Assembly: GCA_051294905.1 (NCBI GenBank)
Contig: CM119372.1
Location: forward strand, 23,190,001 to 23,254,000
Reading direction: 5' to 3'
DNA: 64,000 nucleotides
Source of the DNA: Botryllus schlosseri
Lineage: Eukaryota
Notes under the pieces: model-generated
The model's input: only the letters and a program-made list of their open reading frames with translations
What the model was told of the DNA's origin: nothing
The model's database searches: none
Shown: piece after piece, positions 6,440 to 9,400 of the stretch
Numbering within the stretch: position 1 is the stretch's first letter
Layout of the letters: each line of letters starts with the position of its first letter
Made by a program: the position numbers and the translations under genes

Positions 6440-9400
6440 ATGAGTCGACGCAGACGAAATCGTGTTCGCGAAGAACCGAATGCTGCACCAGAGATCGGTG
6501 ACGAACACCAAGAAGTTGTAAATCAGAACTGGCAAGCGATAAAATCGTATGTAGTGAATGAGAGTCGGCGTGTGTATAATATTCGGGTCATCGGTCGGGA
6601 GTTAGCGGATGTTTTCTGCGATATACAAGCTATATTTTTCTCAGAGTCGACCCGTTTCAAAGTCAATTTCGCGTATGCATTTATTTTGTACCACGTCGAG
6701 ACTCTAAGATTTCGCTATTTTCATGCATCGGCGAATGTTGATAGTGTATTAGAAACACCAGCGGCGATTTCAACACTAGCTAAATTCGATGAATTTGTTG
6801 CATCTATAAGGTTGGAAACGGCACTAGATGTGTTACAAGACTCTCGACCAAACACAAAGTCACTACCGATCTGTCTGACTAATGTACAGTTTTATGTATA
6901 TCCTACCGATGGCATGTTGATTGGTTGTGCTGGTATTAAGCTACCAATATGGCTTACAAAATCAAAATGTGTGTTGACGATGTTGCGTCGAAAAAATAAG
7001 AAACTGTACAATGACAATCTATGTGCTTTTCGCTGTATTGGTCACTCACTAGGTAAAGATACAAAAGCATTGGCTCAACAATTTACTTCGGTGTATGGTA
7101 TCAATGTAGAATCTGGTGTAACTCTTGATATGCTGGACGATATCGAGGACTTGTTTAATGTGGCCATATTTGTGTACACAAAAACTGAGGGTAAAGCTGT
7201 CGCGCTCCGTCGTAGTACGTTTGAAGCGAAACCTGTGTACTTACATTTAGAAGATCGCCATTTCTGTCTTATTACTGATATATCCCGTTACGCGGAGAGC
7301 TATCAATGTGATGTTTGCGAAAGATTTTTTTATGAGCAGTATGAATTGACCAGACACAAATGTGTAACGGGTCCTGTTAAAGTGTTTCCCGGTGGCGTGT
7401 ATACACCTCCTCTGAACATATTTGAAAAACTCGATCTAGAAGGGGTGTTCGTTCCCCACCAGCTTCGTTATTTCAAATACCGTATCGCGTTCAGTATAGA
7501 GAGCTTGTATGATACCTCTAAAACTTTGCGAGAGCACCAGAACATTCCCATCTCTGTTAGCATATCGTCTAATGTGGAAGGTTACTCGGAGTTCCATGTA
7601 ATTATCTCGAGCGGTGATACAAACGATTTGTGCTCACAAATGATTGACCATTTTCACGATATTCAAAGTGAATCATTCAGACTGTCACTCACGGAATATC
7701 GACCCTACTTGGACATGCTCAAATCAAAAATTACCGAAATGAAAGCGCTCGATCCTTCAAAACACCTAATACACCTCGAACGTTTGCAAGTGGAGTTTAT
7801 GAGTTATTTACGTCAAATTCCTGTGTTATCATTCAATGGCGGTCGGTATGACTTGAACTGGCTCAAAGCATACTTGTTTGGTTTTCTAGTTGATGAAAAT
7901 CTGAGTGTATTGAAACGCGGTAACAAATTTCTCTCAATGATGACCAACAGACTCAAATTTTTGGATATTGTAAATTACTTGGCACCCGGATTCTCGTACG
8001 ATGCTTATTTGGAAGTCATCGAATGTAGCACCACTAAAGCTCACTTCCCGTACCAGTTTCTGACTAGTTTGGAAAAGTTGAATAACTCGAGTCTACCAAG
8101 CCACGACGAGTTTTACGACCCGCTAAAAGGTTGCAATATATCAACATCAGAATATGAAAGTTGTTTGAAGGTTTGGAACGACAACAAAATGACCACTTTA
8201 CGTGATTATCTCAAATGGTGCAACGTGAACGATACTCATTACTTCATTGAGGGGTTAGAAAAACAATTCCAATCTTTCAAAAGTCAATTCAATGTTGATA
8301 TATTCAAGGATGCGGTCTGCCTGCTCGGGGTTGTATCGAGACATCTTTTTAACAGCATCCCGCGGGATTTCGCAATGTTCAACGACAAACATAAAGATCT
8401 GTTTTCGCTATTCGGGGATAATTTAGTGGGTGGACCATCGATCATTTTCCATCGACACCCAAAACCAGGTGTAACTCGAATAAAAGAACATTTCTATAAG
8501 GAAAATGCACAGATTGCGCAACATATAACAAGTTTGACCAGCGACTCGCTCTATCTGTATGCTTTAAGTCGACCAAGTCCAACCGGATTTGCGGTACGTT
8601 GGCAACCAATCAACGCCGAGTGTACTAAATTCAAACCTGTCAAGACCGCGCCGAAATGCTCAGAGACTGTAACCCAGTGGATGAATTGGTATTCTCATGT
8701 TCACAAGGTGCATGTTCACCACGCTTTTAACGGACCTGAAATTCATGTGGGCGTGCGCAATTATCGACCTGATGGGTTTTATCGTAATTCGGCCGGACAA
8801 GGGATAATCTTATTGTTCCTTAGATGCGATTTTCACGCCCACGATTGCAGATTCGGATGTGGTGACCCAGTACGTCGAGAGCGAGCTAAACGCATTCATG
8901 ATTATTACGAAAGTCTCAATTATCAGGTTGTATGTAAATGGGAATGCGAGTGGAATATTGAGAAGAAGAGAAATCCTCATATTGTGCGATATCTCGATGG
9001 TATTCAACCACAACTGACTCGTGCCAAGTCTGTCACCCCACAGAAATTGATGGAGATGGTGATGAATGGTACTTTCTTTGGTTGTTTGCTGGTTGATATT
9101 TGTACTCGACCACACTCGAAAAAGCGATTCGTTGAACTCCGCCCGATATTCAAAAATACCACAGTGTCTCGCGATACCGTGAAAAGTGACATGAATCAGC
9201 TTGCTGTAGATCGGAAATCACCCAGTAAACCCACTGACATGTTGGTTGCGTCGTACTGCGGTAAGAAAATCTTGCTAACCTCCGACTTGATCAAATGGTA
9301 TGTAGATCACGGGTTGGTGGTATCAAAAATTCATGAGGCTGTCGAATTCGCAAAAAAGACATGTTTTGACAACTTTGCGAAAAATGTCTCAGACTGTCGA

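Follow-up and report, generated by a model that had tools for sequence, protein, structure and literature searches.

The N-terminal anatomy of Polinton pPolB, in the order TP-vOTU-Exo-Palm (TP, terminal protein), was already published by Krupovic, Kuhn, Fischer and Koonin (2024, PMC11161782), and the OTU domain of pPolB was also noted by Starrett et al. (2021, PMC8502044). According to section 6 of the former, the PAD fold is related to terminal proteins and the linking residue was placed in the alpha2-beta4 loop; the D1 examples given in that paper display Ser or Tyr, and Thr is among the experimentally known linking residues. Its section 8 states that viral OTUs act on polyproteins and on ubiquitin. 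An earlier note on the DNA described here, made from the letters alone, had given as established that the N-terminus of pPolB holds the TP and an OTU-like protease proposed to release it: the domain order is indeed published, but release of the TP by the vOTU is put forward in the same section 8 as a hypothesis from structure models. The roles of the Polinton TP and vOTU are likewise model-based hypotheses in the relevant portions of this literature, in which no demonstrated action was found.

The window (the whole stretch of 64,000 nucleotides from Botryllus schlosseri that was analysed) harbored a Polinton/Maverick element at positions 2168-17958 (15,791 bp, no strand assigned), with ends AGTAGT...ACTACT and a 6-bp target-site duplication (TSD) at 2162-2167 and 17959-17964. 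Terminal inverted repeats (TIRs) extended over 2168-3239 on the left (plus strand) and over 17316-17958 on the right (minus strand, ~643 bp), and displayed no mismatch in 344 nt and two in 309 nt, i.e. two over ~643 bp. The left TIR was interrupted at 2512-2930 by a later insertion of ~419 bp that resembles a hAT-type MITE, its inverted ends measuring 11 bp and its duplication 8 bp; it postdates the arrival of the Polinton. The Polinton itself lies within the coding region of an MFS transporter gene of the host and divides it into a 5' half (1868-2167) and a 3' half (17965-18960) on the plus strand; the two are open and, together with the duplicated target, stay in frame. The near-identical TIRs, the 6-bp TSD and the split host gene still open indicate that the element is young.

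Four other genes of the element, all on the plus strand, were open. They comprised a packaging ATPase (10660-11268; Walker A and B found, weak Pox_A32 match), a retroviral-like integrase with chromodomain (11977-13047; D-D-E motifs found, rve and Chromo matches), an ORF which we take to be the major capsid protein (15568-16839; 115 homologues, the best at 48 %) and an adenain-like gene (16776-17279) presumed to be the maturation protease from its His/Asp/Gln/Cys motifs. Long TIRs, a 6-bp TSD, a short repeated end motif, core genes and a pPolB homologue, all hallmarks of Polintons/Mavericks, were present; the hallmark of autonomous Polintons was absent, the exonuclease, motifs A, B, C, KxY and the thumb not being intact as a set. 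The element is a Polinton by its ends and gene set, but not an autonomous one.

Several further features were observed. A 162-aa ORF on the minus strand (3371-3859) gave a faint OB-fold match (E 0.053), and a 293-aa ORF at 4961-5842 was assigned to no Pfam family. A TIR segment of 67 nt recurred at 88 % between divergent ORFs (4799-4865) and is possibly a promoter or origin element. Three adjacent ORFs at 13304-15194 (276, 223 and 131 aa), without Pfam match, displayed similar C-terminal motifs and are possibly minor-capsid paralogues. Ahead of the pPolB start (6080-6439) and of the ATPase gene (10119-10470) were several ~60-nt GT..AG stretches and short exon-like pieces, in which no continuous coding frame was recognized by eye; aligned sibling contigs contained no splice joints. 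Elsewhere in the window, nested direct and inverted repeats (100-480 nt, 91-99 % alike) occupied 40300-46200, and a 425-aa ORF at 49012-50289 with RNase H and zf-RVT matches was the 3' part of a LINE.

The pPolB ORF (6440-9886, plus strand) encodes 1148 aa. Its N-terminus displayed a predicted TP (D1) domain (6560-6925, residues ~41-162), delimited by secondary structure and by the layout in section 6 of PMC11161782, and, after this domain, a vOTU-like cysteine protease domain (6926-7291, residues ~163-284) and a C2HC zinc finger (7307-7363, residues 290-308). The earlier note had pointed to a conserved Cys at codon 7022 in DNLCAFRCI and a His at codon 7259 in EDRHFCLI, preceded by LIGC. These correspond to Cys195, His274 and residues 160-163, and the two dyad columns were kept in 106 out of 106 near-full-length homologues, chosen by coverage among 167 proteins of at least 1000 residues; an intact Cys/His dyad by itself is ordinary, being the rule among homologues. 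Gly162, the presumed TP/vOTU cut site within LIGC, was kept in 103 of the 106, and Ser or Thr at position 139 in 102. The candidate priming residue Thr139 (codon 6854) is situated in the alpha2-beta4 loop (136-140), two positions after Pro137, between helix 125-135 and strand 141-155 of the AlphaFold2 model. The zinc finger displayed the announced ligand spacing (C290-x2-C293-x12-H306-x-C308). Its Phe occupies +3/+4 from C293, the place it has in C2H2 fingers, and not +6 as had been written.

An AlphaFold2 model of residues 1-345 (54 homologues in the alignment) reached a mean pLDDT of 87. When it was compared with 48,161 PDB chains, the 21 top matches were all OTU-type proteases, aligned over residues ~167-286 (four of the 21 being assigned to this type by us), with 4bop_B the best (Z 8.1, rmsd 3.4, 106 aligned). 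Values of Z below 8 can reflect a common arrangement in such a search, and the OTU assignment draws its weight from one family filling the top ranks and from the placing of the dyad. A vOTU has its Cys at the start of helix alpha1 and its His on strand beta4; in the model, Cys195 opens helix 195-204 and His274 opens strand 274-278. Foldseek retrieved no match at E<=0.001, the TYMV protease/deubiquitinase (E 0.0098) and OTUD1 heading its weaker matches, and Pfam and PDB sequence searches returned no OTU or polymerase match for the pPolB protein. Residues 41-158 weakly matched the little-finger/PAD of Pol IV (4ir1; Z 4.5, rmsd 3.4, 90 aligned), a match ranking below unrelated ATP-grasp rows and obtained with the TP as part of the 1-345 model; the modelled TP topology fits a four-stranded sheet plus two helices. 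Isolated beta-bridges at Ile161 and Val227, read from DSSP strings, co-occurred in the best 1-345 model and were both gone in the full-length model. As they appear and vanish together, we infer that the LIG linker was modelled in the protease cleft, a position that would fit a cut after Gly162. As modelled, residues 1-345 are a putative TP, an OTU-type protease and a zinc finger, confidently predicted and with key residues kept. The proposal that this region is intact is borne out, and the fold prediction suggested as a check on it returned an OTU fold.

The exonuclease, palm, inserted nuclease-like, TPR and fingers regions downstream (7475-9886, plus strand) were degenerate. Residues 352, 700 and 1106, at the acidic positions of Exo I, of motif A and (the second one) of motif C, were not kept here, in contrast to 106/106, 106/106 and 90/90 (16 gapped) of the homologues; the Asp residues of Exo II and III, the Lys of motif B and the first Asp of motif C were still present. 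Near 9850 the homology shifts frame; it was followed by tblastn in another frame (9850-10038, plus strand) and stops by ~10010-10038, just before the KxY motif, so that the ~85-95 C-terminal residues of relatives (KxY, thumb) have no counterpart up to 10660. PF03175 was matched by both nearest relatives and not by pPolB here. The insertion at residues 731-860 is presumably VSR-like, judging from its motifs, and had no match in the Pfam search. The VSR-like designation also leans on a part of 10.1101/2023.08.22.554363. A model of the full-length protein had a pLDDT of 84 and matched phi29 DNA polymerase (E 3e-9), both fold and confidence being driven by the intact homologues in the alignment. 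With exonuclease and polymerase active sites and thumb gone, the protein cannot copy DNA itself, which agrees with the dead polymerase presumed by the earlier note. The dead motifs are not put down to an assembly error, since contigs of siblings obtained in other studies run across motifs B and C gap-free with few differences.

Homologue searches gathered 84 proteins among 4454 candidates and 5514 representatives, all of them Polinton-type pPolBs where labelled. The nearest full-length relatives (P0086 and P0087) were 38 % identical and displayed canonical polymerase motifs. An exact-sequence look-up in the protein collection found none of six element proteins, and scans of IMG/VR and of JGI metagenomes found no locus. 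Part of the element was present in 20 sequencing runs from 11 studies; the source sample may be run X1. Contigs aligned to the element numbered 6550, 575 and 293 in three runs, each from a different study; each set covered 30 out of 30 bins, and most contigs were 90-100 % alike. A raw RNA run contributed 0 reads and has no weight as a test of expression. The element is a multi-copy family that has spread recently.

Two close sibling fragments were found among proteins. One (P0214, 92 % over residues 1-162, window 6440-6925) ends exactly at Gly162, either at a stop or at the end of its 858-nt contig; if at a stop, it would be a stand-alone TP. The other (P0265, 99 % over 875-965) shares two out of two losses with the window copy. 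Out of 624 letter differences between window and siblings 40 were examined, 25 of them in the pPolB ORF and none of these on the three catalytic codons. Among nine contigs checked over the motifs, the count of differences was not decisive in eight; the contig from run X6 displayed six differences over motifs B-C, where nine are needed to match the homologue family. Judging from this contig and P0265, the family has the decay at least partly in common, and the three acidic residues are likely lost in all siblings. Each of the three sibling contigs over 9830-9900 had one gap relative to the window: the late frameshift may be confined to this copy, and the missing C-terminus seems to be shared. 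In runs X6 and X14, loose ends spell out canonical motifs B and C that belong to a related family; known from these short ends, this family is a candidate helper.

The contrast between the two parts of pPolB was measured at the protein level against distant homologues, at three nested thresholds. Only those family-conserved columns were counted that the two nearest relatives keep as well. The N-terminus lost 2/34, 2/29 and 0/21 of these columns (0-7 %), the polymerase part 50/174, 34/142 and 20/104 (19-29 %, with 70-75 % of losses radical) and the capsid control 9/74, 5/54 and 1/28 (4-12 %, none radical). Fisher p values were 0.004, 0.045 and 0.024 for N-terminus versus polymerase part and 0.005-0.045 for capsid versus polymerase part. 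The nearest-relative filter was designed only after the unfiltered capsid control had failed, losing 8/43 columns and looking as diverged as the polymerase; the two nearest relatives of the capsid lose as many columns, and its loss therefore reflects the clade. Without the filter, 0/24 columns conserved at 90 % in 42 homologues (the 45 best-scoring minus three near-duplicates) were lost in residues 41-345 versus 26/118 in 346-1138 (p 0.008), and over eight settings p ranged from 0.008 to 0.19, falling below 0.05 in three. By domain, unfiltered losses were 0/8 in the TP, a sample too small for significance on its own, 0/10 in the OTU and 0/6 in the finger (285-345). In a first rough alignment without the nearest relatives, each of the 38 homologues had ranked above this copy for the TP (15/23 and 11/14 kept), a low rank caused by clade divergence. 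On a fixed tree, the branch of this copy as a share of the rest was 2.35 for the TP, 2.15 for the OTU and 4.16 for the C part; the C/N ratio of 1.76 (25 bootstraps, 1.14-2.36) was the second highest of 42 taxa, a larger one being found in one of 41 homologues. These comparisons of sequences suggest an asymmetry that is real but moderate in strength, and the check on relaxation suggested earlier found the N-terminus less relaxed than the polymerase domain by both columns and branch lengths.

This arrangement is probably that of a helper-dependent Polinton, which would make its own TP-vOTU precursor and borrow an active polymerase. Residues 1-345, to judge from sequence and model, retain TP, vOTU and zinc-finger folds with their key residues; the element's own pPolB, deprived of active sites and thumb, cannot copy DNA; and the family, whose genes for integrase, ATPase, capsid and protease are open, has nevertheless spread and inserted recently. 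The vOTU would cut in cis after Gly162 and free the TP, and the active pPolB of a co-resident Polinton would charge the donated TP at Thr139 and copy the element from its terminal repeats. With copying in trans, the parasite would supply the part that is consumed once per genome end and borrow the catalyst, and the ~800 dead codons would drift in amino acids yet stay free of stops. A deubiquitinase activity of the vOTU on host proteins is possible in addition. It speaks against this reading that a helper carrying a fused TP of its own might do without that of the parasite.

We would go further only tentatively, to a lineage that is a "primer-donor satellite", in which the polymerase gene persists only as a self-cleaving TP precursor that re-arms the polymerase of another Polinton in trans and whose ~800 dead codons protect the mRNA. 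Were this true, nature would have made a separation-of-function mutant in which TP-vOTU can do its work without the polymerase it is joined to. It would also be a living parallel to the event by which the terminal protein of adenoviruses became separate.

Codons 346-1138 (~790) contained no stop, where drift predicts 6-15 (indels ignored), which indicates that translation of the dead part is also selected. The earlier note had explained the preserved ORF by selection for the TP. The constraint on the N-terminus agrees with this, but N-terminal selection alone leaves the stop-free ~800 dead codons unexplained. Judging from the sequence, translation of the dead part may be selected through avoidance of mRNA surveillance or because the part serves as a scaffold. 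Losses in the C part followed codon G+C (12/31, 10/49 and 4/38), as mutation-driven drift would. Missense is tolerated, nonsense is purged and truncation is accepted at the far end only, which is what one would expect if nonsense-mediated decay is being avoided. It is about an even call that stops are avoided because an early one leaves a ~2.5-kb untranslated tail and exposes the mRNA to this decay; that the frame is open because the dead body is still a scaffold is a weaker possibility.

Taken as a full account of the locus, a pseudo-polymerase scaffold, with the whole protein under selection and the dead body binding ends or helper, delivering the TP or acting as a decoy for the helper, appears unlikely. 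The ~790 codons without stop, the pLDDT of the full-length model and the inactivated family-B domains with presumed structural roles described in part of PMC5499653 speak in its favour, as does the lower loss of hydrophobic conserved columns (5/48 versus 21/70 others, p 0.013, at the 90 % threshold). Codon G+C is, however, a confounder of this hydrophobic deficit, which weakens when the threshold is set at 80 % (18/80 versus 34/98, p 0.10), 70-75 % of the lineage-specific losses in the C part are radical, the thumb is deleted and the confidence of the model stems from intact homologues.

Ordinary decay, in which the whole gene of a non-autonomous family that travels along with a helper is drifting and the N-terminus is intact by chance or lag, is in our opinion rather unlikely. 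Conserved N columns are few (17-63 by setting), p exceeded 0.05 in five of eight unfiltered settings, and the 25 examined sibling differences were non-synonymous in 4/8 (N) and 12/17 (C) cases, neither clearly below the neutral ~70 %. Most genomic Mavericks are moreover defective (96 % in vertebrates, according to the relevant part of PMC8097293), but the same source describes them as broken by stops and frameshifts, unlike here. The N-versus-C direction was also the same in all settings, with 6.0 N losses expected at C-part rates and none seen, and an open frame after such drift has a probability of 3e-3 to 3e-7.

It seems improbable that the N-terminus is kept as a host-directed deubiquitinase or counter-defence, with the TP of the helper priming and the own TP a passenger. 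The closest folds do include viral deubiquitinases, no conserved OTU or finger column was lost, and the double activity of viral OTUs on polyproteins and ubiquitin (PMC11161782, section 8) would suit such a role. Against this, the TP branch showed no acceleration either (2.35, with 2.15 for the OTU and 4.16 for the C part); the TP was 36-45 % identical to the two nearest relatives, which share 31 % with each other, and both Thr139 and Gly162 were kept. A divergent polymerase still active through a rearranged active site is highly improbable: the Exo II/III Asp, motif B Lys, first motif C Asp and open frame are kept, but both metal-binding Asp residues of the palm and that of Exo I, invariant in ungapped homologues, are lost, and the KxY motif and thumb are missing.

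What is unusual is the contrast between a dead polymerase and a kept TP-vOTU, the domain layout being already published. This state was found in none of the 106 homologues, and a search of mainly openly accessible literature brought up no full-length dead pPolB with a live TP-vOTU. That a family spreads without DNA synthesis of its own while both domains stay constrained is evidence, of a genetic kind, for an importance of these domains that does not depend on the polymerase, and residues 1-345 make a small fragment, well folded in the model, suited to a self-cleavage assay.

Compared with Polinton/adintovirus pPolB as described in parts of PMC11161782, the element displays the same domain order, Cys/His dyad, linking loop with helix breaker and a putative PAD-like TP, as well as a 6-bp TSD, long TIRs and integrase, ATPase, capsid and protease genes; it differs in that their polymerase is active, whereas here Exo I, motif A, motif C and the thumb are lost and TP and vOTU kept. 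The Tlr1-like TP-vOTU-Palm-S1H proteins of PLVs and transpovirons (PMC5499653 and PMC11161782, in the sections concerned) similarly combine a TP and an active vOTU with an altered polymerase, but in them the exonuclease is missing, a helicase is present and the polymerase is now predicted to be active; here there is no helicase and the exonuclease region is a dead passenger. Adenovirid pTP plus polymerase and the stand-alone TP of a Stylophora polinton (PMC11161782, same portions) share a separate TP and priming in trans. Their polymerase is alive, and the protease is dead or idle, the adenovirid vOTU being inactivated, whereas here the polymerase is dead with TP and protease kept, and the partner must therefore come from another element. 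The polB-less polintons of Lepidoptera (Igolkina et al., 10.1101/2025.02.07.637071, in the part dealing with them) are likewise mobile without a polymerase of their own. They have lost the polB gene including the TP, whereas here the frame and TP-vOTU stay constrained, and the present family bears on how polymerase-less Polintons get copied, a question left by that part of their work.
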